Shown: one piece after another, positions 18,546 through 61,006 of the stretch | Layout: each line of letters starts with the position of its first letter | Numbering within the stretch: position 1 is the first letter of the stretch | From: Chiloscyllium plagiosum | Lineage: Eukaryota | DNA: 64,000 bases | NCBI RefSeq assembly: GCF_004010195.1 | Contig: NC_057756.1 | Location: 9,943,330-10,007,329, forward strand | Direction: 5' to 3' | Made by a program: the position numbers and the translations under genes | The notes under the pieces: model-generated | What the model saw: the letters and a program-made list of their open reading frames with translations, nothing else | Database searches by the model: none | What the model was told of the DNA's origin: nothing

Positions 18546-18549
18546 CTTT

Positions 18550-21250
18550 CCAAAATGCACAACTGGCTCCCTTGGTAGATTAATTGTTTCTGCTTGCCCC
18601 ACAGAACCCATTTCTTCCTACCTCGAATAGATTTCTTCTGCCCTTCTCCAGTCCCTTCCCTGCAATTTCTCTGATGCTTTTACGTCAGTTCCAGAATTTC
18701 CAGTTTGCAGGTTCGACCTGTCTCCTCTTCACCATAGACGTGCAATTCCTTTACATCTCCACTCCCAATCAAGATGATATCAGGACTTTCTGCTTCTTCC
18801 TTGGAAAAAGGCCTGAACTGACCCCATCCACCATCAACCTTCTCCGCCTGGTCGAGCTCATACTCATCCTAAACAACTTCTCTTTTAACTCCTCTCACTT
18901 TCTTCAGGTACCATGGATATCCACATGGGTCTCAGTTATGCCTATCTCTATGTGGGGTAGATGGAATATTCCTTGTCCAGTTGTATTCCTGCCCTCAGGC
19001 ACAACTCTTTCTCTAGTATATCAATGATATAATTGGTGCCCCTTCCCCCTCTCATGCGGAACTGGAAAAGTTGATCAATTTTGCTTCCAATTTCCACCCT
19101 GCTTCCAACTTCCCTTCACCTGGTCCATCTCTGACTCATCCCTCCCCTCCCTCGACATCTCTGTTTCGATTTCTGGGAATAGGTTAGCCATCTATATCCA
19201 CTGTAGACCCACCTACTCTCACAGTTACCTTGACTATATATCCTCACACCCTACTTTCTGTAAAGACTCGATTTCATTCTCCCAGATCCTCCATCTATAT
19301 CAGATCTGTTCTGATGATGACAGATTCAATAAGGGAGCCTCCGAAATATCCATTTTCTTCCCCAGCACTGCTGTTGACATGGGTCTGACCCATTCCCCGC
19401 ATTCAGTATTCACTCCCTCTCTTCCATTCGACAACAACAATAGGGTCCTCCTTGTCCTTATCTATCTTCTCACCAGCATCCACATCCAGAGGATCATTAG
19501 CTGCTATTTCCACCACCTCCAGCAGGATGCCACCACCCAACATAAGAACTCAAAGCAGGAGTAGGCCATCTGGCCCTTTGAGCCTGCTCTGCTATTCAAT
19601 AAGATCATGGCTGATTTTCTCTTGCCTCAGCTTCACTTACCCACCCTCTCACCATAACTCTTAATTCCTTTACTGTTCAAAAATTTTCATCTCAGCATTA
19701 AAAACATTTAGTGAGGAAGGCTCAATCACTTCATTGGGCAGGTAACTGATTCACAAACCTCCGGGTAAAGAAGTTTCATCTCCATTCAGTCCTAAATCTG
19801 CTCCCTCTAATTTTGAGGTTGTGCCCTCTTGTCCTAGTTTCACCTGCCAGTGGAAGCATCATCCCTGCTTATATTAGATTAGATTACTTACAGTGTGGAA
19901 ACAGGCCCTTCGGCCCAACCAGTCCACACCGACCCGCTGAAGCGCAACCCACCCATTCCCCTACATTTACCCCTTTACCTAACACTACGGGCAATTCAGC
20001 ATGGCCAATTCACCTGACCTGCACATCTTTGGACTGTGGGAGGAAACCGGAGCACCCGGAGGAAACCCACACAGACACGGGGAGAATGTGCAAACTCCAC
20101 ACAGTCAGTCGCCTGAGTCAGGAATTGAACCAGGGTCTCTTGCGCTGTGAGGCAGCAGTGCTAACCACTGTGCCGCCCATCTTATCTATTCCCTTCATAA
20201 TTTTATATGTCTCTATAAGATTCACACTCATTCTTCTAAATTCCAATGAATAATCCCAGTCCAATTACTCAGTCTCTTCTTATAAGCCAAACCCCTCAAC
20301 TCCGGAATCAATCCAGTGAACCTCCTCTGCACCCCTTCTAGTGCTAGTACATCCTTTCTCAAGGAGACCAAAACTACACGCAGTACTTCAGGTGTGGCCT
20401 CACCAGCACCCTATATAGTTGCAACATAACCTCCCTGCTTTTACACTCAATTCCTTCAGCAATGAAGGACAAAATTACATTTGCTTTCCTAATTTCCTGT
20501 TGTACCTGCAGACCATTCTTCAGTAATTCATGCACAAGGACACCAAGGTTCTTCTGCACAGCAGCGTGCTGCAATTTCTTAGCATTCAAGTAATATCCTT
20601 GTAACAGCAATAGCCACATATTCCCCTCCATTACCTGTCTGCCTTCCACAGGAACTGTTCCTTCTGGGACACTCTTTGGTCCCACTAACCCTCACCCCAC
20701 AGTCCCATGGCACCTTTCCCTTCTACTGCAGAAGGTGTAACATCTGTCCATTTACCTCCCTCCTCAGTATGCAAAGACCCAAACGTATCTTCCAGGTGAA
20801 GCAGCACTTTACCTGCACTTTGCTTAATCTAGTCTAATGCTTTTGCTTCTCGCAATGTGGTCTCCTCTACACTGGGGACAGAAGTGTAGTCTGGGTGACT
20901 GCTTTGCAGAACACCTATGTTCTGACCACAAAAAGACTCTGAGATTCCAGTTGCCTGCCACACAGCACCTTATTCCCTGGCCAACATCTTCATCTCAGGC
21001 TTGCTGCAGTGCACCAGTGAAGCTCAGCTCAAGCTAGAAGAACAGCACCTCATTTTCTGCTTGGCAAGTCCATGGCTTTCTGCACTCAATATTGAGGTCA
21101 ACAATTTTAGGGTTTGAGACACCTTCTCCAATGTCGTTACCCCAACCCTGACACACCATGCCTTGTTATCAGATGGTTTGTTATTGCACACAACTCGTTG
21201 TTAGCCACTAATAGTCTCCATTAGTAGCTATTTATTCTCCTCAGCTAATT
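18550..21250 (+). mobile_element. Degenerate Penelope-like element (RT to GIY-YIG), interrupted by CR1 (~19540-20600, minus) and HE1 SINE (~19874-20180, minus)
   Basis: LFTIDVQFLY, ELILILNNFSFNSSHFLQ RT motifs and a downstream GIY-YIG remnant. Confidence 0.8.
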
Positions 21251-23329
21251 GTTATTCACCACCTTGACTGTCCAACAGTTCATCTTATCTTAACCAACTT
21301 ATTTTTCCTTCAGTAGCTAATTCAAGCTGTGACTTTGAATTTGATCAGTCAGTGACTTTTCATAAGCAAACCAGCCATCCTGTGCCTCTTGCAAACCAGT
21401 GGAAGCATTCGAGTAAAGAAAAGATCATGGAGAAATCTCTGAGTCAGCAAAAACCCACTAAACAGATCTTGCAAAAGGTTTTTCCAGTTTTCTCTCCATT
21501 CGTGTAATTTTTTCCCATTTTTAAATTTCTCTGCATTTATATTTGTGCAGGAAATAGTTCATAAGGGTTTGGAGTTTTAATTTCTCAAGTTTACTTCAAT
21601 TTATTGGTTACCTGTGACTAGATTTTAATTACCTCAAATAATTAGTGACTCTGGTTAAGTACGAACTCTAGTCCATGATTCCTATCAACTTGGGTTAAAA
21701 AATCACGCAGTTTGGGGATTTTACATAATCTTTCAAAATCTTTAGTTTTTGTGATGATTCCAGGAATAGTGAGGCTTGATTTTCAGTGTGCTATCCCAGA
21801 CGAGTCTTCACAAAATGCAAAGGCCAAAACAGCCTCAAAAAGTTGTGTCAATATTCATACAAAGCATAATAGGTGTTAGGTTCAAACAGCACCAATAATC
21901 ATACCAAATTCCAAGGGAATCACATGCAGGGGGTGGAGGACAGAAATGACAATGGTGTTGAAGAAGAAGCTGAGTAAGCTGTGTGAAATCAACTTTAGTA
22001 CCGAGATGTTGTATGAACAGATTGAAACATTCTGTTATCCTTCACAGCCACACATTCCCCAAGCCTCATCAATGCCAAATGATGCCATTTGCCCACTCAC
22101 ATGACACCTCATATCTCCGACAACACCCCTTGTCCTTTAAGCACCCCAGTGACCGCTGATATCTCCAAAGCCAATCTACGTCTCTCTTCCCAACCCCTAT
22201 GGCCCTGATGTCACCCATGACAACTCAGTGCTGACTCAGTCCCAACCTATATCCCACAGCTTCCTTTGCCTTTACAGCACCATTCTAACTCATGGTCTCC
22301 CCACTATGGGCAGACCTCAGGAGCGACGCTGAGAGGAAACAAAATGAAGCTGTAATTGCAGATTTTATTTAAAAAGATTTACTCATTCATAAAAAACACA
22401 TTCTCTCTTTAAATTCCTCCAACTCCTTAATTTTGCATACACGTAAAGACTCTATTCAATTAGTGAATGCCTTGTGAAAGCACATATTTGGATTCTTAGC
22501 CCAACATGAAAGACTTTCCATCTCTTGAAGCTATTAATCAAACTGTGAAAGAAAGGCCCCTCATCGTAGTAAAGGTAATCATATGGCATGATTTCTATAA
22601 TGGTGGCTCCCTGGTTTATGTCAGTAGACATAATGACATTGCAAGCACTGAATATTATAAATGGTAGACTTTTTTAAACTAAAAGGGCAATGGATTTAAA
22701 TACTGAGCAAGCTTGACCATTTCACTGATATTATTCCCTTTTTATGCATTTTCATGTCTCCACTTGGCAAACACAAAAATAACTTTCTCCTAAAGTGTTA
22801 CCTTGACTGATCAAAAAGGGATCTTTGGACCTATCTAGAGGGTCTGTTGTCTCTCCAAATAACCTGGGAAGCTCTTCAATGTGCAGTTTCTTCCATGAAC
22901 CACGAGTGTGAAAGATTCAATCTGTTTCCATCCCCTGAAACTCCCACTTCACCTTCTTCACTAATGAGTGTTGGGTTTAAGGATAGAACTTCCAGAACTG
23001 GGGCTAAGTTAGAGTCTCCTTTCATTCCTGTTAAACAATTGAGGACATAGAAAATAGTTGAATTGTAACTGAGAAATTAAAAGCTCGTGTTAAATATTAC
23101 CATTTTCTCCATAGTTATGATTGCAATATGATTGGTTGACTTCTAGCAATGATTTGTGAGAAGTGTGACTCAGACTCAAGTGCTTTTACATAAGAAGAAA
23201 TTCTATACACATGTATATAGTTGTTTCAGGTTGACATTAAATGCAGGAAATACTCATCATGTCAGGCAGCATCTGCACAGAGAGGGACAAAGTTAACATT
23301 GAAAAATAACTGTTCGTCTCACTGCAAAT

Positions 23330-23560
23330 AGGAGAAAATGAGGACTGCAGATGTTGGAGATCAGAGTCAAAAAGTGCAGTGCTGGAAAAGCACAGCTGGT
23401 CCGGCAGCATCGGAGGACTAGGAGAGTTGACATTTTGAGCATAAGCTCTTCATCATCACATTCCCGATAAAGGGCTTATGCCTGAAACATGTATTCTTCT
23501 GCTCCTCGGATACTGCCTGACCAGCTGTGCTTTTCCAGTGTCACACTTTTTGACTCACCA
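23330..23560. mobile_element. Short palindromic Penelope-like element
   Basis: gaggactgcagatg...ctggaaaagcacagc arm and its inverted counterpart. Confidence 0.7.
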
Positions 23561-24099
23561 CAGATAATGTCTGGCCTGCTTTTGTGTTGAAACAATTAAG
23601 TGATTTCATTCACAAGGATCAAGATGAGATGAATTGGGGCAAAATATCAAAAATGGGAAGAGGCAAAAGTTGTAGCTGAGTTTGACAGAAAGAGAGAGGG
23701 ATGTTCTGACTAATTGACCTAACACTGAGATGGAATTAATCTAGATCTGTGTAATGTTAATGAATGTGATGATCAGGCCTACTCTGATCAGCTGATGAAT
23801 ACCTCCAGCAGATAAACAACTTAGTACTCACAAGTAGATTTTGAATCACTACACTGAAAGTGATCTTTACTCAACATAGTAATCTCCGAAAATTCTGCAT
23901 GCACACAAACACCCTATTGAGGACTGCCCTATCTACAAACAAGTGGTGGAATAATCGCCTTAAACTCAACAACTGAGGAGGCAGTCACTTGACTCAAGGG
24001 ATATGGATTTGCTGAATCAATAAATAAGTGCTCAGGAATTGTAAGTATTTATGCTGTTGGGAACATTCAGTATAACAGAAACATTTTTCTTTGATTTAG

Positions 24100-24259
24100 T
24101 TGCATGAATTTAATCCCAGTTTTGAAGATAAACATTCAATCATTCCAGAAAATATCATTCATGGAGTGGCTTTCGTTTTTGATATGAACACATTCGACAA
24201 CATTGATCCGTATATAATGAAACAGTTTCAGGAGCTCCAAACTCTTGTGGCTCAGAAAT
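24100..24259 (+). CDS. IFI44-like: IFI44-like exon 5 (160 nt; LHEFNPSFEDKHSIIPENIIHGVAFVFDMNTFDNIDPYIMKQFQELQTLVAQK)
   Basis: Acceptor tttctttgatttag and donor gtaagt. FNP...IHGVAFVFD matches the IFI44 hallmark FNP...IHCVAFVFD. Confidence 0.85.
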
Positions 24260-24352
24260 GTAAGTCTCCATTTTGCTTTCAGACTTATAACCTTTATTGC
24301 CATTCAGTACCCTGTTGAACATTAATATTTTTACTGAATTCTATCTTTTCAG

Positions 24353-24450
24353 ATATTTACAGGATTGTGATTGGGACCAAATTTGACCAATTAGGGATAC
24401 CAGAGAGACATTATAGTTACATATACAACTACAAGCTGCTACAAGAGAAG
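24353..24450 (+). CDS. IFI44-like: IFI44-like exon 6 (98 nt; YIYRIVIGTKFDQLGIPERHYSYIYNYKLLQEK), G4 TKxD
   Basis: Acceptor ctatcttttcag and donor gtaata after a 93-nt intron. Phase 1 continues exon 5; carries a TKFD motif. Confidence 0.8.
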
Positions 24451-25039
24451 GTAATAGTTTTAGTGCATAGTATCACGTATATTGATGTCAGTACAATTTT
24501 TTTTAGTTTGTGATATGGGTATTATTGGAAAGGTTAGTACTGATTGCCCATCATGTATCACCATTGACAAAGTAGTGTGTTGCATTCATGAAATGCTACA
24601 GTTAATTGACTGAAGATGTTTTGATACAGTAATCCCCAAGTTTCGACATTGGTCTGGACTCTTAGCCCCCAGCTCCTCCAATTAACTAAATGTGTCAATG
24701 TGAGGATGGAAGGGCTGAATGGGGCACTCAAATACACTCAATTCAGGAAGCAGGTTTTAGCCTGAAGATATCTCTCAGTGAGGGGGCACAGGCAGACAGG
24801 AGAACATTCATTGGTCTTCTAAGTCAGAGGGTGTAGGCAAAACTCCCATTGCTGAAACATCAGCCTAAAGTCTAGACTGATGCTCCATACTGAGAGAGTG
24901 CAGCACAGTTAGAGATGAATTGTCCAGAATGTGATGCTTAACTGAAGCTCTGCCTGCCTCTCTAGGCACAATTCAAAACACAATCAGTGCTACAATGCAC
25001 TGGACTAATGCACCATAAATCTAGCTCTTTTTTTGTCTA

Positions 25040-28000
25040 GAGTTCATTTGTTCAGTAGATATAGGAGTAGAATTAGGCCATTTGGCCCATTGAGTCTGCT
25101 CCGCCATTTCATCATGGCTGATATGCTCCTCGCCCCCATTTTCCTGTCTTCTCCCCATAACCCTCGACCCATTAGCAATTAAAAATCCCGCCTAGCTCCT
25201 CCTTAAATTTACTCACTGTCCCAGTATCCACCACACTTTGGGATAGCGAATTGCACAGATTCACAATCCTTTGGGAGAAGTAGTTTTTCTTCAACTCTGT
25301 TTCAAATGTGCTACCCCTTATCCTAAGACTATGTTAGAATGCCCCACAGGAGGAAGCATCTACTCTACATCTAGTTTATCCAGACCTTTCATCATCTTGA
25401 AAACATCAATTTGATCTCCCCGCATTCTTCCAAATTCCAGAGATTTCAGGCATAAATTGTTCAATCTCTCTCCATATGACAAAACCCTCATCTTTGGGAT
25501 CAATCTTGTAAAACTCCTTTGAACCGCCTCCAATGGCACTACATCTTTCCTCAAATAAGGGGACCAAAACTGAGCACAATACTCCAGGTGTGGTCTTATC
25601 AATGCCTTGTGTAGTTGCAACAATACTTCCTTACATTTATATTCTATTCATTTAGCTTTAAAAGCCAACATTCCATTCACTTTCTTTATTATCTGGATGG
25701 CTGAATGCTAGTTTTCTGTGACTCATGAATGAGCACACCCAGATCCCTCTGTACCGTAGCACCCCAAGGTCTCTCCCCATTTAGATAATAGGTTGCCTTC
25801 CATTTTTCTGACCAAAATGCATGACCTCACACTTATCCACATTAAAATGCATCTGCCACATTTTGGTCCACTTTCCTAACACTTCCTCATTGCATTATGC
25901 TGCCTATTTTTGTGTCATCTGCAAATTTGCCTTTGAGCCTCTATCCCTGCATCCAAGTCATTAATATTGATTATAAATAGCTGGGGCCCAAGGACTGAAC
26001 CCTGTGGCACCGCACTAGTTATTTATTGCATCCAGAAAAATAAAATTTATCCTGACTCTCTGTCTTCTGTCCATCAGTCAGTCACCTATCCAAGCTAATA
26101 CATTACGTATAATCCCATATGATCCAATATTGTGAATTAATGTTTTGTGTGACACCTTATCAAATGCCTTCCGGAAGTCCAGATATTTTACATCTACAGG
26201 ATCCCCTTGATCCACTTTGCTTGTTACATCTTCAAAGAATTCTAGCAAATTAGTCAAACATGATTTTCCTTTTGCAAAACCATGCTGAATCTGACGAATA
26301 GCGTTTTGACTTTCCAAGTGTTTTGATATTGCTTTTTTGATCATTGATTCCAAGCAAATGTACACACAGTGCGTCCAGTTGACCCGATTTTCAGACCAAG
26401 GTTGATGGAAAGCACAGACCTACACTAACCAAGAATTAATTCCGATGATTAAATACAGCTACAGATAAAAGGATACAAGCTATTGGCACATCACACTACC
26501 AACTAAAAATCTAATCATTTGATAAATTCCACCCCCAATGAAAAACACAGACAAAACAGTGAAAACAGACTAACGATGGAGGTAAACAAAAACTGGAAAC
26601 TCCATTGATTAGTCTTTGCTTCTTAGTCTCAATGTTGAGGTGAATCGTCTTTGGCTCACCAGGCCCTTGGTGTTCAATTGTCTTTCTTTTAATACTCCCA
26701 CTAGTTTGTAAGTGGCAAATAAATTAAATTAAAGAGTGGATGATGCATTTGTACAATGCTTCTCATTTCTAAATTCAAACATTATTGTTCACAATTGCTG
26801 CAGGCAGGAAAACTGGTTTTATAGAGTCATAGAGATGTACCGTACAGAAACAGACCCTTCAGTCCAACTCGTCCACACCGACTGGATATCCCAACCCAAT
26901 CCAATCCCACCTGCTGGCACTTGGTCCATATCCCTCCAAACCTTTCCTATTCATATAACCATCCAGATGCCTTTAAAATGTTGCAATTGACTAGCCTCTA
27001 TCACTTCCTCTGGCAGCTCATTCCATACACATACCACTCTGTGTGAAAAAGTTACCCCTTAGGTCACTTTTATATCTTTCCCCTCTCACCCTAAACCTAT
27101 GCCCTCTACTTCTGGACTCCCCTACCCCACGGGGGTAAGACCTTGTCTATTTATCCTATCCATGCCCCTCATGATTTTATAAACCTCTATAAGGTCACCC
27201 CACAGCCTCCGATGCTCCAGGGAAAACAGCCCCAGGCCATTCAACCTCTCCCTGTAGCTCAAATCCTCCAACCCTGGAAACTCCCTGTAAATCTTTTCTG
27301 AACCCTTTCAAGTTTCACAACATATTTCCAATAGGAAGGAGACCAGAATTGCATGCAATATTCCAACAGTGGTCTAAAAAATGTCCTGTACAGCTGCAAC
27401 ATGACCTCCCAACCCCTGTACTCAAGACTCTGACCAATAAAGGAAAGCATACCAAATGCCTTCTTCACTATGTAAACACCTGTGACTCCACTATGAACCT
27501 GCACTCCAAGGTCTCTTTGTTTAGCAACACTCCCTAGGACCTTACCATTAAGAGTATAAATCCTGCTAAGTTAGCACAAACTGATCCATGCCGACCAAAA
27601 TATCATTCCATGCGAACCCCATTTCCCTGCACTTGGCCCATATTGTTCTAAACCTTTCCTTTCCATGTATTTGTCCAAATGCCTTTTAAATGTTGTTCAT
27701 GTACCTGCCTCAACTACTTCCACCAACAGTTCATTCCATATGCATACCACCCTCTGTGTAAATAAGTTGCCCCTCATGTTCCCATTTATTCTTTCCCCTC
27801 TTACCTTAAACTGATGGCCTCTCATCCTCCAATTCCCCAACCTCGGGGAAAAGACTGAGTGCATTCACCCCATCCATACCTCTCAGAATCTTATACACTT
27901 CTGTAAGATCCCCCCTCAGTCTCCGACACTTAAAAGAAAAAAAGTCCTAACCAGTCCAACCTCTCCAAAAAGCTCAGTCCCTTGAGTCCTGGCAATATTC

Positions 28001-30175
28001 TTTAATTCTTTTTCTGCATTATTTCCAGTTTAATAACATTCTTCCCAAAGCAAGGTGACCAAAACTGAACACAGTACTCCAAGTGCAGCCTCACCAATGT
28101 CCTGTACAACTGTGACATAATTTCCTAACTTCTGTATTCAATGTCCTAACTGATGAAGGCCATTGTGCCAACAGTCTTCTTCACTGCTCTGTCTGGGGTG
28201 GCACGGTGGCACAGTGGTTAGCACTGCTGCCTCGCAGCACCACAGACCTGGGTTCAATTCCTGTCTCGGGCAACTGTCTGTGTGGAGTTTGCATATTCTC
28301 CCAGTGTCTGCGTGGGTTTCCTCCCACAGTCTAAAGATGTGCAGGTTAGGTGAATTGGCCATGCTAAATTGCCTGTAGAGTTAGGTGAAGGGGTAAATAA
28401 AAGGGTTGCTCTTCGGAGGGTCGGTGTTGACTTGTTGGGCCGAAGGGCCTGTTTCGACACTATAAGTAATCTAATCTACTTATGACTCCACTTTCAGAGA
28501 ATTGTACGCCTGAACTCTCTTTGTTCCACTATACTCCTTAAGGACCTACCATTCACATTGATTTGACTTTCCAAAATGCAACACTTCACATTTATCTGTA
28601 TCAAACTCCATTTGCCATTTCTTGGCCCCACTTCACCAGCTGCTCAAGATCCAGCTGCAATTTCTGATAACCATCCTCACTGTCCACGATAACACCTAGT
28701 TTAGTGTCATCTGCAAACGTATTAATCATGCCTTGTACATTCTCATCCAAATCATTGATACAGATAACAAACAGCAATGGGCCCAGCATTGACCCTGGGC
28801 ACACCGCTAGTCACAGGCCTCCAGTCCGACAAACACCCTTCCACTATTACCCTCAGCTTCCTACTATCAAGCCAATTGTATATCCACTTTGCCAGCTTGC
28901 CCTGGATTCCATACGATCTAACCTTTCAGAAAGCCTACCATGCGGAATCTTATCTAGGGCCTTACTGAAATCCATACAGACTATTCCTAGTGCCCTGCCT
29001 TCATCAACCTTCCTTGTCACTTCATCAAAGAACTCTAATAAATTTGTGAGACGTGATCTCCTAGCTAAAAAGTCATGCTGACTACTCCTAATCAAACCCT
29101 GTCTTTCCAAATGCATGTTTATCTTATTCTTCAGAATTTTCGCTCGTAATTTACCTACCACAGATGTCAGGCCTACTGGTCTATAGTTCCCATGTATTCT
29201 TTGCAGCCCTTCTTTAATAAGGGCACAACATTTGTTTCCATCCAGTATTCTAGGACCTCACCTGTAGCTCACGATGATGCAATTATATCAACCAGGGTAC
29301 CTGCAATTTCTTCTTTCGCCTCTTGCAGTGTTCTTGGCTGTATCTGGTCAGGACCAGGAGATTTATCCATCTTCATACATTCTAACATGTTCAATACCTC
29401 CTCTACTGTGATATGGACTGTCCCCAAAATATCACCGCTAACTTCCCCAAGTTCCTTAGTCTTCTTGTCTTTCTCCGCGGCAAACACAGAGGTGAAATAT
29501 TCGTTGAGGACCTCACCCATTTCCTCTGATACATATGTGTCCACTTTGGTTCTTGAGAGGTCCTTTTCTCTCTATAGTTACTCGTTTTCCTTTAATATAT
29601 TTAAATAATCTTCTCGGCCAAAACTATCTTGTGTCCCCATTACCTTCTTCAGTAATCTCCTGCATCCCCTGTATACCTCCAGGGATTCTCAACCTCAGCT
29701 GCTCCTACCTGAGCCATGCCTCCTTTTATTTTTCTGGTCACAGCCTCAATATCTCTTGTCCTGGGTTCCCTACTCCTGCCAAACTTGCCCGTCACCCTCA
29801 GAGGAACATATAGATCATGAACTCTAGCTATTATACTATTAAATACCACTTGCCAGAGGTCCCTTTGCCTGCAAACAAACTACTCCAATCCACCCCTGTA
29901 AGCTCCTGTCCAATTCCTTCGAACTTTGCCTTGCCCCAGTTTAGAATTTGAACCTGTGGACCAGTTTTGTCTCTCTCTGTAGCAATTTTAAAAATATTAG
30001 AACAATGGCCACTGGTCCTAAAGTGCTCCCTCAGCTGTCATCTCAGTCACCTGTCCTGCCCTATTTCCCAAGAGTTGGTGGTGTTTTGCCCCTTCCCAAG
30101 TACGACACTCCATATAATGCTTCAGGAAACTTTCCTGAACACACTTAACAAGTTCCATTCCATCAAAGCCCTTAA
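25040..30175 (-). mobile_element. Cluster of CR1 LINE remnants (~25040-26355, ~26820-27570, ~27575-30175) with HE1 SINE at ~28196-28480 (+)
   Basis: QHGFAKGKSCLTNLLEFFE, FADDTK and IRPHLEYCAQFWSP translations. Confidence 0.88.
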
Positions 30176-30736
30176 TTCTATGTTGTTTTACTGCTGGCTT
30201 CTGCTGGGGAAAGCAATTCCACAATCATGTGTGCCTTTCTCTCTTTTTGTATCTCTATGACTTGCTTCAACCTGCTCAGTTAACTAAGAACCAATTAGCT
30301 TCATGAGTGAATAACTCTTCCTCTTTGGATCATCTGCATATTACAGGAATCCACAGCCATAACAAAAATTCGCAGCAGTTACCAAATGGTGAAATTATGC
30401 AGCCATCCTGGTAAATTCCTGTTTTTAAAAACAGTACTTTCTCATTGCACTACACATTCTAAAAGTCCTTATGTGCCCCCATCCTTAAGGAAAATTAAAT
30501 GTCATTTCCAAAATGCATGTAATTACAAATCCATAATATATAGACTGCAAGACTTTCATTCTTCCTCCCCATTTATATAAATTTATGTTTTGGAACTTAT
30601 TACATTTTAATGTATTCTAACATTTTACTTCAAGTTTAGCCATAGCTGCAGTCACTGCACGTAATGGAAAAATTTCCACAACCTGTTCCTGCAACTATTC
30701 CATTTCTACAGCCTCAGCTGGACTTTCCGTGATTAT

Positions 30737-30957
30737 TGCTGAAAACGTGTTGCTGGAAAAGCGCAGCAGGTCAGGCATCATCCAGGGAAGAGGACAATCG
30801 ACGTTTCGGGCATAAGCCCTTCTTCAGGAATTCCTGAAGAAGGGCTTATGCCCGAAACGTTGATTCTCCTGTTCCCTGGATGCTGCCTGACCTGCTGCGC
30901 TTTTCCAGCAATACATTTTCAGCTCTGATCTCCAGCATCTGCAGTCCTCACTTTCTC
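30737..30957. mobile_element. Short palindromic Penelope-like element with two hammerhead cores
   Basis: Symmetry centre ttcaggaa|ttcctgaa at 30830/30831; TSD CTTTCCGTGATTAT (30723-30736, 30958-30971). Confidence 0.85.
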
Positions 30958-31464
30958 CTTTCCGTGATTATAGGCAAAGTTATGCTTTCACTCTTGCAAC
31001 AGCATTCCCCAGAAGTAAATGAACTCCATTTATTCACATGTAATTTCTAAACAACCCAACTCCTATACTCACAACAAGAAGTCACCGTCCAATGAAATCT
31101 CAAATCATAGAAATGGACTGTAAAAAGGGAAATACACTATTTATCTCTCTAGCTATTCATCTGAAAACATCTTGATTTTCAAAGAAGTCCCTGGAGAGTT
31201 TGCATAGTTCCTGTATCTCTTGTCAATCGACTTGGCTGCTTGCTTTGAAGAAAAAGAGATTATCTTTGCTTGAGATGAAAACAAACCTTCAAACCCTTCA
31301 TAAAACTGTTCATAAAACCTATATAGCTTATGTCATTCATTTACAATGCCTTTTTCTGGTCTCTTAGTTAATCTAGTGTTCGTCTGATCAGAACATGCCC
31401 TGTGTGAAGCTATGCAGTTGCCTGTACTCAAGTGATGTTCAAAAATGTGTGGATGGAAAAGCGC

Positions 31465-32220
31465 TGCAGGTCATCCTTCGTCATTTCTGCCACCTCCAAA
31501 CGGACCCCACCACCAAGGATATATTTCCCTCCCAAACCCTATCAGCGTTCCAAAAAGACCACTCCCTCCACGACTCCCTTGTCAGATCCACAGCCCCCAC
31601 CAACCCAACCTCCACTCGCGGCACCTTCCCCTGCAACCGCAAGAAATGCAAAACTTGCACCCACACCTCCCCCCTCACTTCCCTCCAAGGCCCCAAGGGA
31701 TACTTCCATATCCATCAAAAATTCACCTGCACCTCCACACACATCATTTACTGCATCCGCTGCACCCGATGTGGCCTCCTCTACATTGGGGAGANNNNNN
31801 NNNNNNNNNNNNNNNNNNNNNNNNNNNNNNNNNNNNNNNNNNNNNNNNNNNCCCTCATTTCCCCTCCCCCCACCTTGTCTCAACCAAACCCCTCGAACTC
31901 AGCACCGCCTTCCTAACCTGCAATCTTCTTCCTGACCTCTCCGCCCTATCACCCTCATCTTAACTTCCTTCCACCTATCGCATTTCCAACGCCCCTCCCC
32001 CAAGTCCCTCCTCCCTACCTTTTATCTTAGCCTGCTGGACACATTTTCCTCATTCCTGAAGAAGGGCTTATGCCCGAAACGTCGATTCTCCTGCTCCTTT
32101 GATGCTGCCTGACCTGCTGCGCTTTTCCAGCAACACATTTTTAAGCTCTGACCTGCTGCGCTTTTCCAGCAACACATTTTTAAGCTTTGATTGCCAGCAT
32201 CTGCAGTCCTCACTTTCTCA
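31465..32220 (+). mobile_element. Penelope-like element 3' part (GIY-YIG and terminal repeat)
   Basis: FTCTSTHIIYCIRCTRCGLLYIGE; hammerhead-like core at ~32056-32083. Confidence 0.88.
31795..31851. other. Small assembly gap (57 N)
   Basis: Run of N inside a Penelope-like element. Confidence 1.
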
Positions 32221-32629
32221 AGGGATGTTCCCCAAGCTCAGGCTGATGGGTGAGGGGGTTCATTTACATTGGGCCTTGTCATTGATAGAAGCATTGATTG
32301 AGTCAAGCTTCCTAAAAAAGGAGGCATGATGTAAGATGATGCTGCCCCCAACTCCAAGTTGACTGCTGGGAGTTGGTTTCTTGCGGATTGTTCATTCTTC
32401 TCATTGGCACTGAGGCTGGCATCCCATCACTAATCATCTCTTATTCACAAATACGTCGACTTTGACAACAGCACTGACTCTCACTGGGTCAGGCATCAGA
32501 GTGTCCAATATCCCTGCCAGTCATCCTTTTACTTTAGCCAGGGCTCCTTGATTGGACCAGAAGTGATAACCCCAATCAGGAAACTCATATTCAGCTGGCT
32601 GACCTTGTAAAAACCATCTCACTCAGGCT

Positions 32630-34170
32630 GTTTCCTTAAATTCTGGAACCTTTGCCTATGTATCTGAGGTACTAACACATATGCAGCCAATATAGCTTTC
32701 TTCACTGTATTATAATCTCAAGTATTCTTCTCTGACAGTGATGCATAGATTTCCTGTGCTTTTACTGTTAACTTACTCTGCATGAGAAATATCTAGACGT
32801 CTTTTCCCAATTAATTTGTCTTGCCATTTTTTCAAACGTCATGAAGAATGCCTTCACATGCTTTTCCTCAAACTTCACGCAGGACTGTTTAAAGCTTAAA
32901 TTCTTACTGGACTTAAATTATGATTCAAATGCTCCCCACCAGAACCTGCATCTAATATTTCCTGTATCAACTGTGCCATTTAAAAATTATATTCATATTC
33001 TCTCATTTTCTCTTCTCTTTGTAATTCTAAATCTAGTATTCTCATTTCCATTTTTCAATTCCACTCCTTCTCCTAATCTTTTGCTGTCCTTATCTTTTCC
33101 TCACCTTTGGAGTTCTATTTCCAATTTAATCACTCTCTTGTCATACTCATGCTGCTTTCACTGAAGTTGAACATTTCAATACCTTAAGTACTTTTCCCTT
33201 TCTGTATTTCCACTAAACCCAAGTGCAGTGCTAGTACCACAATTCGCCTTATCTTTTTTTCAAGTCAGGCAATGCCTTGAGCAAACCTTGAGTTTACCCA
33301 CTAAGACAATCAACTTTGATTTTGAAATTTCCTTTAAGACTGGCAGCAACAACACTGCCACCTGCAGCAAAATATTTGTTGTTCCCTGTCTTAACTGCAA
33401 TACACAATCTGGTGTTATTTTTACAATACCACACTCATATCCTCATTGCTTCTGTTTCCAACACAGTTCAATCCAATCCAAACCCAGGCAAACCCACAGG
33501 GGAAGTTTGCTGTAAATCAAACCGCAATCTTATAGGAGTGTATAAAAATACACACAATACCCTAACTTATTTGACTTTCAAACCAAGCTTGGTAAAAAGC
33601 ACAGACTAGGTTTTACTCTAACCAAGAAATATTAATTATTCCAAGTAATTCAAATATAGCTAAAAGTAACCAGAGATAAACCATTGGCATGTACTATCAT
33701 TACCTAAAACATTAATCTCTTTGCACACGTACACAGACTAATCACACAGGTTGAAAAACTGTAAAGCCAGCTCAACTGATTCCAATTTGAGATAATCTTC
33801 ATTGTGCTTTGGTGTCCAGTCATTTTTTTTTGAATACTTCCACTTGTTTGTTGGTGTTGCAGAATGGTCAGTTCACATATGAAATGTCTCTGATTTACCA
33901 ATTTAAAAGTTTGCTTTTACTGCAAAGTACAGAGAACTTGTGATAGGGAGACGAACTGCACAGACATCTGTCTTTATCTCTCTGTGTGTCTGCACCTATA
34001 ACTTGTTTCCACTTCCAACTTGTTCAGTTCGCTGAGAACCAGTTTGCTTTAGTTGCAAACAACCCCTTAGCTCCTAAATAGCTGAACATTGTTTTAGTGG
34101 CTGTGGCTGGTTACAGAATTCAGAATAGCATTCAAATTCCTGGCTGTGAAATTATGCAGCCATCCTGGTG
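32630..34170 (-). mobile_element. Old Gypsy-type LTR retrotransposon remnant (gag and upstream region)
   Basis: Lys/Glu-rich coiled-coil-like minus-strand composition. A linked segment near 30640-30720 reads FPLRAVTAAMAK, resembling Gypsy protease ends. Confidence 0.4.
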
Positions 34171-34195: not shown

Positions 34196-37100
34196 ACTAA
34201 CTGCACAGAGGTCGGTATCCCATCACCAAGTCACCTTCATTTACTTGTGCACAGTACACTGGCTGTGGATAGCCTGCTCAGAGTCATTTCTCAAAAAGAG
34301 ATTCTAATCTCCTGGGTATATTTTCTAATCAACCATCCAAAGACATTATCATGCACCTCTAGAGTAGGCAGGACTTGAATCCAGGATTCCTGGGCTAGAG
34401 TTAGGAACAATACTGCTGCACCACAAGAATCACTCTCCTAGTTATATTGGTCAGCCAGGGCTTTCTTGACTGACCCAGGTTAATAACCCCAATCATCGAC
34501 CTCATCGTCAACAAGGTTAATCTGGTTCCAATCCCTACATCCATACGCATCCAAATCAGGTCTTTGGCCATTTTCACCTCAGCTCCAGTTTCTGTGAGCT
34601 GGACTCTGACATGAGTGGCATATACCAGACGGTAAACCGCCTCTTGCACCTGCAGTGCCTCAGGAGATTTTTCTCCTCTCCCTCCAGCAATAATGGCATT
34701 AAAGCTGCATCCATCTCGGACTCTGAGGTTTACTCAAGATGGAGGGGAGAATGTACAGTTTTCAACAGGCCTTCTGGCGGTTTTGAGGGACTCCTGCCCA
34801 TTTGCAAGGTAACAGCTTTCAGGTTAAGATTAGATTAGATTAGATTACTTACAGTGTGGAAACAGGCCCTTCGGCCCAACAAGTCCACACTGACCCGCAA
34901 CCCACCCAGACCCATTCCCCTACATTTATCCCTTCACCTAACACTACGGGCAATTTAGCATGGCCAATTCACCTAAACTGCACATTTTTGGGCTGTGGGA
35001 GGAAACCGGAGCACCCGGGGGAAACTCACGCAGACACGGGGAGAATGTGCAAACTCCACACAGTCAGTCGCCTGAGGCAGGAATTGAACCCGGGACTCTA
35101 GCACTGTGAGGCAGCAGTGCTAACCACTGTGCCATTGTGCCACCCGTATACAGGTGATCCACATGTTTGTTCAGGATTCTATCACATACACAAATGTGCT
35201 AAGTGATGGGACTTGACCTCATATCAACTTTGCCTTGTAACCATTCAGGGCCACTTTCATCATTCCCACACCAAAGTTTATCCCCTGAATAAAATTGACT
35301 CTCTCGCTTAGAGGAGTCTTGTGGCTGGCATTAGCATTCCTGCTGCCATTTCACCCTCTCCCCAGGACTGGGAACATCAGGTTTAACCGGGTACAGAGTC
35401 TTCTCCCATCAGCAACTCTGCTGGAGCTATCCCTGTTGTTGAATGTGGGGTGGTACTATAAACAAACAGGAACTGGGTCAGTTTGGTAATAATTGACACT
35501 TTAGGCTGCTTCTTTAAGCCTGCCTTTAACATTTGGACTGTTCTTTCCGCTAGACCGTTGGATATTGAATGACATGAAACTGTTCTGATGTGCTGAATGC
35601 CATTGGACTTTAAAAAATACTTGAATTCCCTGCTGGTAAATAACGCTTCATTGCCCGTGACAAATTTTTCCAGAAGTCTGTGTATGGCAAACAATGCTCA
35701 CAGTTTCTCAATCATTATCTCCGAGTTTGCAGAACAAACTTTATGCATGTCCAGCTACTTTGAATGGGCATCCACAATGAGTAAGAACATTGAGCCTATG
35801 ATAAGAGCCGACATAGTTGATGATCAACTGAGTCCAGCGTTTTCCTGGACATTTCCATGAATGTAGGGGCACTGCTGATGACAATGTTTGCCCTTGTTGG
35901 CACTCTGAGCACTGCCCTACCAACGCAGCCACGTCATTATCCAACCCTAGCCACCAGACATAGCTTCTTGTGAGCATCTTCATCTTGGAAACCTCTGGAT
36001 GACCTTGGTGGAGTCTAGCCAGTCTCTGGCAGTGACCTTTACTCGGGACAATCACTCTTGCTCCCAGCAGCAATATGCCATCCTCTACGGTGATCTGGTC
36101 TCACCGAGTCCAGTAAAGGTTTAATCCTGGTTGTGATGGCCCTTCTGTTTGCTCCATGGCCACCAGATGTTTTAGTTTCACTAGCCCAGGACCTTTTTAT
36201 GTCCACAGTCAGATATTGTCAGCAGTGACTGGAAGAGTGCCCAGAAGTTCAAAACCAAACCGGACTGTTCTGGAGAGGCACTGCTGATGGAGTATCTGCT
36301 AATGGGAGGCGGCTCAAGGCATCCACATGAGCTACTTGGCTTCCTGGTCAGTGTTCCAAACTTTACTTGAACACGCTGAGAATAAGGGCCCAGCGTTAAA
36401 TTCTATCAGAAGCTACGGGCATCACCGTCGTGTCTTCCTTCAGTAGCCCCAGGAAGGGTTTGTGATCTGTTACAATGACAAATTAGCATCTGTAAAGGTA
36501 GTAGTAGCACTTCCTCACACCAAAGATAACTACCAAAACTTTCTTCTCTATTGAGGCGTATTTGCATCTGGCATCAGCCAAAGTCCTGGAAGTATATGCT
36601 AATCAGTCATTCCTCTCCATTGGGCCATCAGTGAATCAACACTGTCCCAATACTGTGTTGGGATTGGGGGGAATCATCATATGTCAGCTTTATCTCCCAG
36701 TTTGGATCATCGGGGTCAACAGCTGAGATGATGATAGCTGCTTCTTCACTTCCCTACAGGCTACTTCTTGGCTACACAACTATTTCCAATGACTCTTTTT
36801 CAATAACAGATGCAAGGATGCCAAAGTAAAAGCCAATTTATATATGAATTTTCCATAATAATTCATTAACCTGAGAAAAATCTAAGCTCCAGTACAGACG
36901 TGGGAGCCAAGGCTCCTTTGATGGCTCTCATTTTCACTTCCAAAAGGAGTAACCCAGGTTTGTTGACTCTAACCGAAGTAGGCTACTTGGGGTGTCTGGA
37001 AGAAACATTTAAGCACTATTATTTTATTAGTTTTCCTGGTTATTTACACATCATCAAGATAAATGACAACCTCGTGTAGCCCTTGTAAAATGTTCTCCAT

Positions 37101-37350
37101 GGACCACTGGTAAAGGTTGCAGGCTGATGATACCCTAAATGGCAATCTTGTATATTGATATAAACCCTTATGGGTATTAATTGTAGCATACCTCTGGGAC
37201 TCCTCATCCAGTCATAATTGTGGGTAGGTGTGGCTCATGTCCAGTTTCATAAAGGATAGCTCTTCCCTCCCCCCCCCTGCATTAACTCTGCATATAAATC
37301 CTCTATGCAAGGGATCAGGTATTTATCCAGCTGCAAGTAGTTTACCATTT
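34196..37350 (-). mobile_element. Degenerate Gypsy/Ty3 pol (RT, RNase H, integrase) with LTR-like end; HE1 SINE nested at ~34826-35146
   Basis: LHQGHPEVSKMKMLTRSYVWW, FTSREFKYFLKSNGIQH, SNGLAERTVQ and TTPHSTTG integrase motifs. Confidence 0.85.
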
Positions 37351-37369: not shown

Positions 37370-37665
37370 GCATCATGGTAGCCTACAAGCTTACCAATAC
37401 ACTTAAACAGCAGCTAATGAACCCAAAGGATCCATTAGATACTACCAGCAAAACTAAATGGCATTTACAAAATACCATGCAAGAACTGTAAAAGACTATA
37501 TTGGACAAACAAGCAGGAAACTCGCAACCAGGATACATGAACATCAACTAGCTAGTGGGACAGAATCATAGGACACACATTCTGTGTCCTATAATCCTGC
37601 CCCACTAGCTATCTGATGAGACTTTTAACTTAAAATCAATAAACACACGTTACCAACCCATCAAC
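37370..37665 (+). mobile_element. Penelope-like (Poseidon-type) GIY-YIG fragment
   Basis: IYKIPCKNC..YIGQTSRKLATRIHEHQLA. Confidence 0.7.
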
Positions 37666-38323
37666 TTTCTTTAAGCACCGTTCAGACTTGATAATGTTAC
37701 TTTCAAACGTTTGTCTATATACGACTCCTGATCCCTCTATCCTTGCACCGCCGCTCAATTCGTGTCATTCTGAAATATTTCCGATTAGAGAAGGAACGCG
37801 CAGTGTAAACCCAAAGGAAGAGAGGCAAATAGATTCAGATAAAAATATTACTTTGAATTGAATGCAGGGCATTGCGGAGATCCTCAATTTCACGAGAAAC
37901 TTTGTACACGAACAGAACACATGGCATCTTGAGATCCCCATCAGGTGCGGGACTGTCCATCAGAATAGTTTTGTGTACATTTCCTTGTCCGTAACATTCC
38001 ACTGGTATAAAAGATAACTCATGCTGAGTCAGGCATTATGGCACATAACGGATAATTTATTTATTATCTGCAGCAACATGCTTCACCCTTGTACCTTGTC
38101 TCAATCAACGACCAGAGGTCTCCCTGCGCCCTCACATGCTTCTATTACCGAATAACTTCCTAGTCCGCCTTTTCTACCCTCTTCCTTAAACCCACTCCGA
38201 ATAGTCTTACTACCCACTCCTCCCCTGCCACTCTCCCATTTTTCCTACTCCTTACACTCTGCACCTCCTCTTCCTGACTTCTTCCCTCCCTCTCCATATG
38301 AGCCAGACCTCATCCCCCCTCCT

Positions 38324-38524
38324 AGAAGAAAGTGAGGTCTGCAGATGCTGGAGATCAGAGCTGAAAATGTGTTGCTGGAACAGCGCAGGTCAGGCAGCAT
38401 CCAAGGAACAGGAGAATCGACGTTTCGGGCATTCCTGAAGAAGGGCTTATGCCCGAAACGTCGATTCTCCTGTTCCTTGGATGCTGCCTGACATGCTGCG
38501 CTGTTCCAGCAACACATTTTCAGC
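38324..38524. mobile_element. Short palindromic Penelope-like element with hammerhead core
   Basis: Inverted arms; CTGAAGA-A-GGGC-TTAT-GCCC-GAAACGTC; duplicated ctcatcccc flank. Confidence 0.8.
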
Positions 38525-39054
38525 TCATCCCCTCCTACCTTTGTAACGCAGTCCAAGGATTGCTCTGCTGCAGCAGGAAGGAAGCAAGTTCACGACATGG
38601 ACCTGGACCCAGATCGGAAGCAGATGACGGCTAAGGGTTTGGAGCCGGTTTCTGATTATCTTCAGCAGCCAGGTGCAGATGAGGATTCCGATCCTGATTA
38701 CCTTCAGGATCAGGGTATGGATCCACACAACGAACTGAACCAAGTAATAAATTACCATTCCCATTCTTCCGAAGCAGATTTCTGGTCAGCATATAACTCC
38801 GTCTTCCCATTGGCTCCCAATGGAGTTGCTCTCTTTTCTCATTGGTCCCATTGTACAGCTCCCTTTGGTCCCGCCCACTTTACCCATTGGAGGACTGATA
38901 GGTCACTCAACGCTGCCCAATAAACTTGTTGAACTATAACCCGGTGTTGTGTGAGTTTTAACCGTAAACGTGTTGGATTGGAACCTGGTGTTGTGTGAGT
39001 TTTAACTTCGCCAAGACAAAACAAAATCTGCAGATGCTGGAATCCAAGGTAGAC

Positions 39055-40280
39055 AGGCAGGAGGCTGGAAGAACTCAGCAAGGCAGGCAGCATCAGGAGG
39101 GACAGGCAGGAGGCTGGGGGAACACAGCAAGGCGGGCAGCACCAGGAGGGTCAGGCAGGAGGCTGGGGGAACACAGCAAGGCAGGCAGCATCAGGAGGGT
39201 CAGGCAGGAGGCTGGGGGAACACAGCAAGCAGGCAGCATTCAGGAGGGTCAGGCAGGAGGCTGGGGGAACACAGCAAGGCAGGCAGCATCAGGAGGGTCA
39301 GGCAGGAGGCTGGGGGAACACAGCAAGGCAGGCAGCATCAGGAGGGTCAGGCAGGAGGCTGGGGGAACACAGCAAGGCAGGCAGCATCAGGAGGGTCAGG
39401 CAGGAGGCTGGGGGAACACAGCAAGGCAGGCAGCATCAGGAGGGTCAGGCAGGAGGCTGGGGGAACACAGCAAGGCAGGCAGCATCAGGAGGGTCAGGCA
39501 GGAGGCTGGGGGAACACAGCAAGGCAGGCAGCATCAGGAGGGTCAGGCAGGAGGCTGGGGGAACACAGCAAGGCAGGCAGCATCAGGAGGGTCAGGCAGG
39601 AGGCTGGGGGAACACAGCAAGGCAGGCAGCATCAGGAGGGTCAGGCAGGAGGCTGGGGGAACACAGCAAGGCAGGCAGCATCAGGAGGGTCAGGCAGGAG
39701 GCTGGGGGAACACAGCAAGGCAGGCAGCATCAGGAGGGTCAGGCAGGAGGCTGGGGGAACACAGCAAGGCAGGCAGCATCAGGAGGGACAGGCAGGAGGC
39801 TGGGGGAACACAGCAAGGCAGGCAGCATCAGGAGGGTCAGGCAGGAGGCTGGGGGAACACAGCAACACAGCAAGTCAGGCAGCATCAGGAGGGACAGGCA
39901 GGAGGCTGGGGGAACACAGCAAGGGAGGCAGCATCAGGAGGGACAGGCAGGAGGCTGGGGGAACACAGCAAGGCGGGCAGCACCAGGAGGGTCAGGCAGG
40001 AGGCTGGGGGAACACAGCAAGGCAGGCAGCATCAGGAGGGTCAGGCAGGAGGCTGGGGGAACACAGCAAGGCAGGCAGCATCAGGAGGGTCAGGCAGGAG
40101 GCTGGGGGAACACAGCAAGGCAGGCAGCATCAGGGCGGGATAGGCAGGAGGAACACAGCAAGCCAGGCAGCATCAGGGGGGACAGGCAGGAGGGTGGGAG
40201 AACACAGCAAGCCAGGCAGCATCAGGAGGCTGGAAGAACTCAGCAAGCCAGGCAGCATCAGGAGGGACAGGCAGGAGGCT
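39055..40280 (+). repeat. 49-bp minisatellite, about 25 copies
   Basis: Unit gtcaggcaggaggctgggggaacacagcaaggcaggcagcatcaggagg; period 49 (for example 39301 and 39350). Confidence 0.95.
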
Positions 40281-40299
40281 GTAGGAACACTTAGTGTTC

Positions 40300-41506: not shown

Positions 41507-42240
41507 GTAAATTTAAGGAGGAGTTAGGCAGATTTTTAATTACTAATGGGTTGAAGGTTATGGGGAGAAGACAGGAAAATGGAGTTGAGAAGCATATCAG
41601 CCGTGATCAAATGGCGGAGCAGACTTAATGGGCCAAATGGCCTAATTCTGCTCCTATATCTTATGAACGAATGAATTCCTGAAAAAAAAGAGTTAGTTTT
41701 ATGGTGCATTAGTCTAGTGCATTGTAGCCTAGAGAGGCAGGCAGAGCTTCAGTTAAGCATCACATTCTGGACAATTCATCTCTAACTGTGCTGCACTCCC
41801 TCAGTATGGAGTGTCATTCTAGACTTTAGGCTGATGTTTCAGCAATGGGAGTTTTGCCTACACCCTCTGACTTAGAAGACCAATGAATGTTCTCATGTCT
41901 GCCTGTGCTCCCTCACAGAGAGATATCTTCAGGCTAAAACCTGCTTCCTGAATTGAGTGTATTTGAGTGCCCCGTTCAGCCCTTCCATCCTCACATTGAC
42001 ACATTCAGTTAATTGGAGGAGCTTGGGGCTGAGAGTCCACGCCAATGTCAAAACTTGGGGATTACTGTATCAAAACATCTTCAGTCAATTAACTGTAGCA
42101 TTTCACAAATGCAACACACTACTTTGTCAATGGTGATACATGATGGGCAATCAGTACTAACCTTTCCAAAAATACCCATATCACAAACCTTTTAAAAAAT
42201 TGTACTGACATCAATATATACGTGATTCTACGAATTAAAC

Positions 42241-42254
42241 TATTACCTTCTCTT
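42241..42254 (-). pseudogene. Remnant of IFI44-like exon 6 (last 8 nt AAGAGAAG plus gtaata donor) at a deletion junction
   Basis: Reverse complement reads ...ggcttgctgcag|aagagaag|gtaata, fusing sequence equivalent to 21009 with 24443 of the middle contig. Confidence 0.8.
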
Positions 42255-43608
42255 CTGCAGCAAGCCTGAGATGAAGTTGTTGGCCAGGGAATAAGGTGCT
42301 GCGTGGCAGGCAACTGGAATCTCAGAGTCTTTTTGTGGTCAGAACATAGGTGTTCTGCAAAACAGTCACCCAGTCGACACTTCTGTCCCCAGTGTAGAGG
42401 AGACCACATTGCGAGAAGCAAAAGCATCAGACTAGATTAAGTGAAGTGCAGGTAAAGTGCTGCTTCACCTGGAAGATATGTTTGGGTCTTTGCATACTGG
42501 GGAGGGAGGTAAATGGACAGATGTTACACCTTCTGCAGTAGTAGGGAAAGGTGCCATGGGACTGTGGGGTGAGGGTTAGTGGGACTGAAGGGTGTCCCAG
42601 AAGGAACAGTCGCTGTGGAAGGCGGACAGGTAATGGAGGGGAATATGTGGCTATTACTGTTACAAGGATATTACTTGAATGCTAAGAAATTGCAGAACGC
42701 TGCTGTGCAGAAGAACCTTGGTGTCCTTGTGCATGAATTGCAGAAGAATGGTCTGCAGGTACAATAGGAAGTTAGGAAGGCAAATGTAGTTTTGTCCTTC
42801 ATTGCTAAAGGAATTGAGTGTAAAAGCAGGGAGGTTATGTTTCATCTCTATAGGGTGCTAGTGAGGCCACACCTGGAGTACTGCGTGTAGTTTTGGTCTC
42901 CTTTAGAAAGGATGTACTGGCACTCAAAGGGGTGCAGAGGATGTTCACTGGATTGATTCCAGAGTTGAGGGGTTTGGCTTATAAGAAGAGACTGAGTAAA
43001 TAGGCTGGGATTATGTTCATTGGAATTTAGAAGAATGAGTGTGAATCTTATAGAAACATATAAAATTGTGAAGGGAATACATAAGATAGAAGCAGGGAGG
43101 ATGCTTCCACTGGCAGGTGAAACTAGGACAAGAGGGCACAGCCTCAAAATTAGAGGGAGCAGATTTAGGACTGAATGGAGATGAAACTTCTTTACCCGGA
43201 GGTTTGTGAATCTATGAAATTGCCTGCCCAATGAAGTGATTGAGCCTTCCTCACTAAATGTTTTTAATGCTGAGATGAAAATTTTTGAACAGTAAAGGAA
43301 TTAAGAGTTATGGTGAGAGGGTGGGTAAGTGAAGCTGAGGCAAGAGAAAATCAGCCATGATCTTATTGAATAGCAGAGCAGGCTCAAAGGGCCAGATGGC
43401 CTACTCCTGCTATGAGTTCTTATGTTGGGTGGTGGCATCCTGCTGGAGGTGGTGGAAATAGCAGCTAATGATCCTCTGGATGTGGATGCTGGTGAGAAGA
43501 TAGATAAGGACAAGGAGGACCCTATTGTTGTTGTCGAAGGGAAGAGATGGGGTGAATACTGAATGCGGGAGATGGGTCAGACCCATGTCAACAGCGGTGC
43601 TGGGGAAG

Positions 43609-43938
43609 GTTAGATTAGATTACATTAGATTAGATTACATTACAGTGTGGAAACAGGCCCTTCGGCCCAACAAGTCCACACCGACCCGCCGAAGCGAAAC
43701 CCACCCATACCCCTACATTTACCCCTTACCTAACACTACGGGCAATTTAGCATGGCCAATTCACCTGACCCTGCACATCTTTTGGACTGTGGGAGGAAAC
43801 CGGAGCACCCGGAGGAAACCCACGCAGACACGGGGAGAACGTGCAAACTCCACACAGTCAGTCGCCTGAGGCGGGAATTGAACCCGGGTCTCAGGCGCTG
43901 TGAGGCAGCAGTGCTAACCACTGTGCCACCGTGCCACC
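43609..43938 (-). mobile_element. HE1-type SINE, full length
   Basis: A box TGGCACAGTGG, B box GGTTCAATTCC and (TAATC)n tail on the minus strand. Confidence 0.9.
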
Positions 43939-60840: not shown

Positions 60841-61006
60841 ATTTCTCAGAAGTCATGTGACTTCAGTCAACTGCCTCCTAGGATGTCTGTGGTGTTAATA
60901 GATGAAATATTTATCCTGCCTGACCTGTTGTGCTTTCCAAGCAACACACTCTCAACTCTGATCTCCAGCATCTTCAGTCCTCACTTTCTCCTACCCATCC
61001 AAGATA

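Follow-up and report, generated by a model that had tools for sequence, protein, structure and literature searches.

Short hammerhead-bearing palindromes in a shark genome as probable single insertions of a Penelope-like element

What is the short palindrome at 30723–30971 of a shark interferon-induced gene region, and how did it arise? It is flanked by a target-site duplication (TSD), carries a minimal hammerhead motif on each strand and has several relatives in the 64-kb stretch of DNA analyzed here (the window). The initial annotation offered two answers: a non-autonomous, ribozyme-bearing hairpin retroelement, or recurrent extreme truncation products of a Penelope-like element (PLE). We find that the palindromes are the short extreme of the published PLE insertion unit, a layout that has already been described, and that the reading as a new ribozyme element does not hold. 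Each palindrome is probably one insertion event of an endonuclease-bearing PLE, assembled at the target.

Anatomy of the palindromes and their parent element

Two inverted pLTR copies make up the palindrome. The tail-less arm (30737–30831, − strand) starts 4 nt before its hammerhead core (30800–30827, − strand, GUC triplet, 0 mismatches) and stops at the tail-less PLE end. The tailed arm (30830–30959, + strand) likewise begins 4 nt before its core (30834–30861, + strand, GUU triplet, one mismatch) and runs to the tail end; the PLE tail of ~35 nt (30926–30959, + strand) is present on this arm only and pairs back with the arm through a conserved 7-bp stem. The arms meet in a 2-nt overlap, the AT at 30830–30831, which the sequence assigns to both as a microhomology. 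The left TSD (30723–30736, + strand, 14 bp) is identical at 14/14 positions to the right one (30958–30971, + strand). The reading frame that the insertion interrupts resembles what we take to be a decayed LTR-retrotransposon.

Inverted repeats were detected at 1, 9377, 23364, 30731, 38358, 57206 and 58918, in agreement with the loci of the initial annotation, and together with several single arms they form one repeat group. Six palindromes are complete and measure 203–276 bp; the seventh (1–216), from another subfamily and with a 17-nt duplication (105–138) in its tailed arm, is truncated by the window edge. An older palindrome inside a LINE (9382–9601) has a 16-bp TSD (15/16) and a centre overlap of 4 nt, and two others have degenerate TSDs: an old one at 23330–23556 (12 bp, 9/12) and an older one with a short spacer at 57167–57397 (13 bp, 10/13). 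The remaining two are young. One (38324–38526) has a tailed arm that begins in the stem II loop, a centre overlap of 3 nt and a TSD of 14–16 bp with a slip in a C run, and the other (58889–59164), also inside a LINE, has a TSD of 10/11 and a centre (59019–59054) that is a 36/36 inverted copy of 58020–58055. The half units noted earlier are likewise borne out as single tailed arms: one at 44175–44297 (+ strand) has a 16-bp TSD (15/16) and an empty site in a paralogous block, and one from another subfamily lies at 63839–63968 (+ strand). Further fragments of the family occur at 60913 and 47140.

Among the six palindromes with both flanks in view, TSDs are clear in four and degenerate in two, and empty paralogous sites confirm those at 9383 and 58889 as well as that of the single arm at 44175. 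The long TSDs noted earlier are present, with a corrected range of 11–16 bp, and a search at the single arms at 63839 and 60913 found none. All six palindromes with both ends in view are asymmetric, one arm being ~35 nt longer at its outer end. The same shape is formed by at least five subfamilies, 71–85% identical to one another, across which the 7-bp arm–tail stem is kept. Each of its pairs holds in 9–11 of 11 rows, without covariation, and the stem may serve the enzyme for recognition. At 38307–38324, 23554–23556, 44296–44297 and 13379–13383 the element end is identical to the target DNA over 2–5 nt, which suggests base-paired priming or joining. Small unrelated palindromes are found at 37542–37618 and 60999–61073; the former directly follows a decayed GIY-YIG-like frame (~37460–37540) and may belong to a second PLE family. 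The left edge of a tandem array of ~49-bp units (39052–40290) is similar to the pLTR arm read on the opposite strand.

This anatomy is that of the PLE insertion unit as described by Arkhipova et al. 2013 (PMC3846280) and Craig et al. 2021 (PMC8557442): head-to-head inverted pLTRs within a TSD, a 30–40-bp tail on one arm, an adjoining inverted 5′-truncated copy, a short overlap or palindrome at the junction, and microhomology at 5′ joints. Compared with the unit in these accounts, the arms here are usually 95–130 nt long and without an ORF, the units are very abundant, and the TSDs span 11–16 bp rather than the 8–10 bp given for rotifers (PMC3846280).

The parent is visible in two ORF-bearing copies. 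One lies ~500 bp from the focus palindrome (31427–32230, + strand, with 57 N inside), and has the same ends and anatomy with unequal arms: within a 14-bp TSD (31427–31440 and 32217–32230) are an inverted tail-less stub of 33 nt (31441–31473) and a long, 5′-truncated tailed arm that codes for a CX4CxxC linker and the start of a GIY-YIG domain. A ~45-nt tandem duplication (32107–32190) spans its tail-less end. The other copy (13384–13947, + strand) is 5′-truncated and tail-less, codes for the C-terminal half of GIY-YIG and, when compared with its empty paralogous site, lacks a TSD. Each of these two copies (13384 and 31441) codes for half a GIY-YIG domain, and both end in the same hammerhead core (at 13858 and 32056), as first annotated. 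CX4CxxC and the CxxC that precedes YIG are found in P0002 and the histidines in P0001, so that the CCHH residues are present. The window fragments alone gave no Pfam match; they align at 72–90% with shark proteins that carry RVT_1 followed by GIY-YIG, matches that in those proteins mostly fall below the Pfam cut-offs, and the closest protein is from Chiloscyllium punctatum (90%). By the linker and endonuclease motifs in its sequence, and with the definitions given in PMC8557442, the parent is classed as an endonuclease-bearing PLE of the Neptune/Nematis type. The short arms are 91–96% identical to the ORF-bearing copies, and no private lineage sets the monomers apart. Older PLE reverse-transcriptase fragments lie at 18506–19564 and 44304–44905, with the single arm at 44175 in the same paralogous block.

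The host gene (11187–62442, − strand, by exon prediction and protein match) encodes an interferon-induced protein 44-like. Its six coding exons have canonical splice sites and match a 269-aa protein, which the Atlas groups with clusters of interferon-induced protein 44-like (score 0.99, TM 0.92), and one exon is 96% identical to a C. punctatum protein; together with the element's own best match, this identifies the source as a carpet shark. Many of the copies had been placed in introns of an interferon-type gene. Five of the seven do lie within the gene span; the gene is not an interferon, and because it takes up 80% of the window these five amount to no enrichment. A motif search, and a Pfam search of 464 ORFs of ≥38 aa outside repeats, gave no interferon-family match. 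Exons 4 and 5 (24100–24259 and 24353–24450) lie on the + strand, opposite to the other four, and the block 17922–41006, flanked by two 500-N gaps, probably has the wrong orientation in the scaffold. Its reversal would also convert the inverted duplications to tandem ones. The paralogous blocks within the gene (17922–25212 versus 41507–45493 and 13061–17421 versus 27416–33744, 88–97% identity) carry different deletions and are the source of the empty sites. Decayed LTR-retrotransposon pol pieces, with integrase, RNase H and RT Pfam matches, occur at 35744–37211 and 49220–50966.

The hammerhead core and the fold of the RNA

The core motif is found 12 times in the window at ≤3 mismatches, compared with 0 in 100 shuffles, and its loops vary as reported (TTTT, TTAT, TAAT, TCAT, CTGT). 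It has the CUGANGA and GAAA boxes, an NUH triplet, the G10.1–C11.1 pair, an extra base after A9 and self-complementary positions 15.2/16.2. Stem II is paired in 96.8% of cells (16 rows). Stem covariation is weak, with one double change in each of 2/7 pairs, a result equalled by 19–36 of 500 shuffles. The annotated PLE origin and the minimal type I motif with a self-complementary stem III position stand, and the core, the extra base before stem II, the closing G–C pair and the 15.2/16.2 complementarity are shared with the metazoan PLE hammerheads of Cervera and de la Pena 2014 (PMC4209133). Differences from these are a stem II of 4 bp and a helix I made up of 2 bp, a mismatch and one further pair (84.6% pairing across the three pairs), compared with a helix I of 4–5 bp in that account and 2 bp in D. 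virilis. An Rfam search at E ≤1 returned no hammerhead. Its 10 matches are all to microRNA hairpin models far below the cut-offs, and a microRNA precursor reading of the hairpins was rejected.

Cores on both strands had been described for the best copies, and two cores within 2 mismatches are indeed found in two palindromes (30737 and 58889); the other five lack such a pair. In Schistosoma, pairs of minimal hammerheads on opposite strands lie 100–700 bp apart (PMC4209133), according to a study that also describes most such motifs as solo copies of truncated PLEs. The cores here are 6–53 nt apart, and we map unit boundaries and TSDs that the accessible text of that study does not. Because the two cores lie on opposite strands, one transcript contains one sense core and its antisense, which rules out an in-cis dimer of the back-to-back hammerheads. 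The predicted fold of the focus RNA has −172 kcal/mol, versus −122 kcal/mol with the core held free (z = −25), so that the anticipated hairpin is indeed predicted and is ~50 kcal/mol more stable than the core-free fold. According to this model, the hammerhead in read-through intron RNA would most likely be buried in the long hairpin and inactive. Related minimal hammerheads are reported to cleave poorly, only as dimers or with protein (PMC11167929, PMC4209133).

Aligned RNA reads cover both strands, and 94% continue into unlike sequence. No pile-up of RNA ends was called in one poly(A) single-cell run, of which 2% was read and whose library type makes it a weak test. The read pattern fits passive read-through. 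The hammerhead cleavage site was also considered as the usual 5′ end of copies and is ruled out, since the arms keep the core upstream of that site. Among the joints listed from public contigs, one opposite-strand joint falls at 13886, the first base after the cut, and three fall at 13888. This minority hints at possible cDNAs of hammerhead-cleaved RNA.

The 5′ boundary of the copies

All genome-wide statements draw on four runs (two of DNA contigs, each from a different species, one of raw single-cell RNA reads and a fourth that is presumed to be RNA) aligned at 80% likeness to a single reference, 13340–14000. Mean depth over the core exceeded the upstream mean 7.0-fold and 8.8-fold in the DNA contigs, 17.8-fold in the raw RNA reads and 62.7-fold in the run guessed to be RNA, and the ratio of the lowest core bin to the highest upstream bin was 3.5, 4.1, 7.7 and 20.3. 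By this comparison short copies are several-fold commoner than long ones, with the caveats that depth in contigs does not measure copy number and that the step is inflated by subfamilies whose upstream DNA is less than 80% alike. A pile of loose 5′ ends is found at 13854 in 4/4 runs (282, 303, 206 and 49 records), and the agreement among these ends of 0.32–0.40 indicates varied flanks. The length distribution, whose randomness would have spoken against a discrete family, is thus non-random, with its pile-up 4 nt before the core in all four runs. The other 5′ piles among the best 24 of 1626 rows are at 13903 and 13685, where diverged subfamilies contribute short stretches of homology, or at the next base, 13855. 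An AG 26 nt before 13854 was tried as the boundary and discarded, as the loose ends show no common upstream exon (agreement 0.32).

The A at 13854 belongs to an initiator-like motif, YYANWYY, the initiator consensus; 11 such sites occur in 562 bp. In 3/4 runs the consensus has a G immediately before this A. A G also precedes the start in six of the seven joints at 13854–13857 listed among the best 12 of 56 joints that have intervening letters and are of unstated kind (p ~0.007 if A, G and T are equally likely). In the window, 0 of 11 listed arms have it (one row being off register), several of them being explained by overlap with the partner arm. In L1 and SVA, copying of the cap is given as the origin of an extra untemplated G (PMC3287187, PMC11702581); the G at the joints could instead come from the partner arm or a subfamily variant. 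On these sequence patterns, the boundary where copies begin may be the start of the element's RNA. The D. virilis PLE starts 46 nt before its intron, well upstream of its hammerhead (PMC2377424, PMC4209133), and the start proposed here is therefore not general. In the accessible literature we found neither a 5′ boundary defined to the base, with its initiator-like motif and extra G, nor a centre asymmetry of the kind that argues for double priming.

Assembly at the target and the alternatives

We propose that a palindrome forms in four steps. The enzyme would cut both target strands 11–16 nt apart, giving rise to the TSD, and each 3′ end would then prime reverse transcription within the pLTR, at the tail end or ~35 nt upstream, as in vitro work suggests (PMC11167929). 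The use of two priming sites would explain why the tail is on one arm and absent from the other. The template would mostly be the 5′ pLTR copy, so that synthesis runs off after 95–130 nt at the RNA start, the initiator-like A; because the pLTR is also present at the RNA's 5′ end, priming there must yield a short run-off cDNA. Finally, as the junction sequences themselves show, the cDNA ends are joined through a 2–4-nt microhomology or a locally templated patch. Extension of only one end would leave a single arm, use of the 3′ pLTR as template would produce a long ORF-bearing arm, as at 31441, and the hammerhead would be carried along uncut. We consider it quite likely that cutting, double priming and end joining took place together in this way, and place slightly better than even confidence in the boundary being a capped RNA start.

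Two known systems resemble this scheme. In vitro assays of the Anolis Poseidon element (Frangieh et al. 2024, PMC11167929) show that both DNA strands are cut and extended, that two internal reverse-transcription starts bracket the tail, and that uncut RNA is the main substrate. This element belongs to a different clade from ours, and the accessible account describes neither palindromic short insertions nor a fixed 5′ boundary. LINE-1 twin priming (PMC11702581) shares the priming of both target ends, an intact 12–18-bp TSD and microhomology end joining at the centre. In L1 the two arms derive from neighbouring parts of a single RNA, whereas both arms here copy the same part from two fixed starts.

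The arms and centres of the seven palindromes, few as these loci are, bear on how the two halves came together. No centre is shared: 7/7 differ, three being overlaps (of 2, 3 and 4 nt), one a templated patch and others short spacers. The differences extend to the three young copies, which have arms 92–97% identical between loci. The patch at 58889 includes that locus's unique flank, its source is ~1 kb away, and its centre had no match in six other LINE ends. Not one alignment column separates tailed from tail-less arms, 4/7 loci have variants confined to their own two arms, and the mate arm is the nearest neighbour for 9/14 arms (in the oldest copy the mates rank 10th and 11th). The palindromes consequently do not look, in their sequence, like copies of one hairpin master, as they should if palindromic masters were transcribed, re-inserted whole by the PLE enzyme and left to diverge at their centres through breakage and repair. 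This form of non-autonomous element would account for the narrow, discrete size range, the sharp 5′ boundary and the high abundance; palindrome centres are fragile (PMC7999016), so that the centre differences and the templated patch could postdate insertion, and putative non-autonomous PLE derivatives are known in Chlamydomonas (PMC8557442). We nevertheless judge it very improbable. The subfamilies, at least five, that converge on one shape count against it, as do outer ends that both match known reverse-transcription start types, a hairpin of such stability that it would be a poor template, and RNA reads that mostly continue into unlike sequence with no end pile-up called. In the accessible literature, Repbase/Dfam entries excluded, our searches met with no account of a shark PLE family that is both palindromic and non-autonomous. 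What stands of the initial annotation is its second answer, recurrent products of the parent element.

The arms could also be related by self-priming, in which one cDNA folds back near the hammerhead, the second arm is copied from it, and an endonuclease cut at the tail boundary creates the tail-less end. Such a model has been published for rotifer PLEs (PMC3846280), and it would explain the 2–4-nt overlaps at three centres and the variants that are private to both arms of the same palindrome at 4/7 loci. However, at the centre it is the tail-less arm that extends further upstream in 4/7 copies (the tailed arm does so in one, and the two are about equal in two), and a 36-nt local patch separates the arms at 58889. 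A fold-back copy cannot exceed its template at the centre or gain a missing tail, and two cDNAs therefore fit better; later deletions at the centre could rescue self-priming, which we regard as unlikely. Less probable again, in our estimate, is a mobile ~130-nt monomer RNA, SINE- or retrozyme-like, expressed from dispersed copies, with palindromes built on site from two monomer cDNAs. The excess of short copies, the arm–tail stem kept across subfamilies and the 62.7-fold core enrichment in the run guessed to be RNA would suit it. Yet the monomers begin at the motif's A, without an upstream promoter region, they form no lineage apart from the ORF-bearing copies, and no discrete RNA ends are found. 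The non-LTR retrozymes of Li, Clavereau and Pollet (2026, 10.64898/2026.07.22.740005) are similarly protein-free and pLTR-derived with a type I hammerhead; they form head-to-tail tandems of at least two units with hammerheads on the same strand, in contrast to the inverted pairs and solo arms here, and the word 'palindrom' is absent from the main text of that report.

Assembly at the target by double priming has a broader counterpart, which we put forward tentatively: most PLE copies in these sharks may be 'strong-stop'-like cDNAs, begun inside the 5′ pLTR and run off at a capped RNA start 4 nt before the hammerhead, with the cap copied as an extra G; an enzyme dimer would do so at both target strands simultaneously.

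The origin of tandem and inverted PLE structures is stated to be undefined in PMC8557442. Because nothing but the ends and the joint is left in the minimal units, which are very numerous, sequence alone can separate fold-back from double priming; they also allow the PLE RNA start to be predicted to the base and make the PLE mechanism testable. The 100-bp RNA hairpins scattered through introns would be a likely load on dsRNA sensing and editing. If the joints at 13886–13888 do come from cleaved RNA, they would be the first in vivo trace of hammerhead cleavage. If the 'strong-stop'-like reading is true, the genome would contain a very large archive from which the PLE start site can be mapped and in which insertion from two templates by double priming is documented in vivo.
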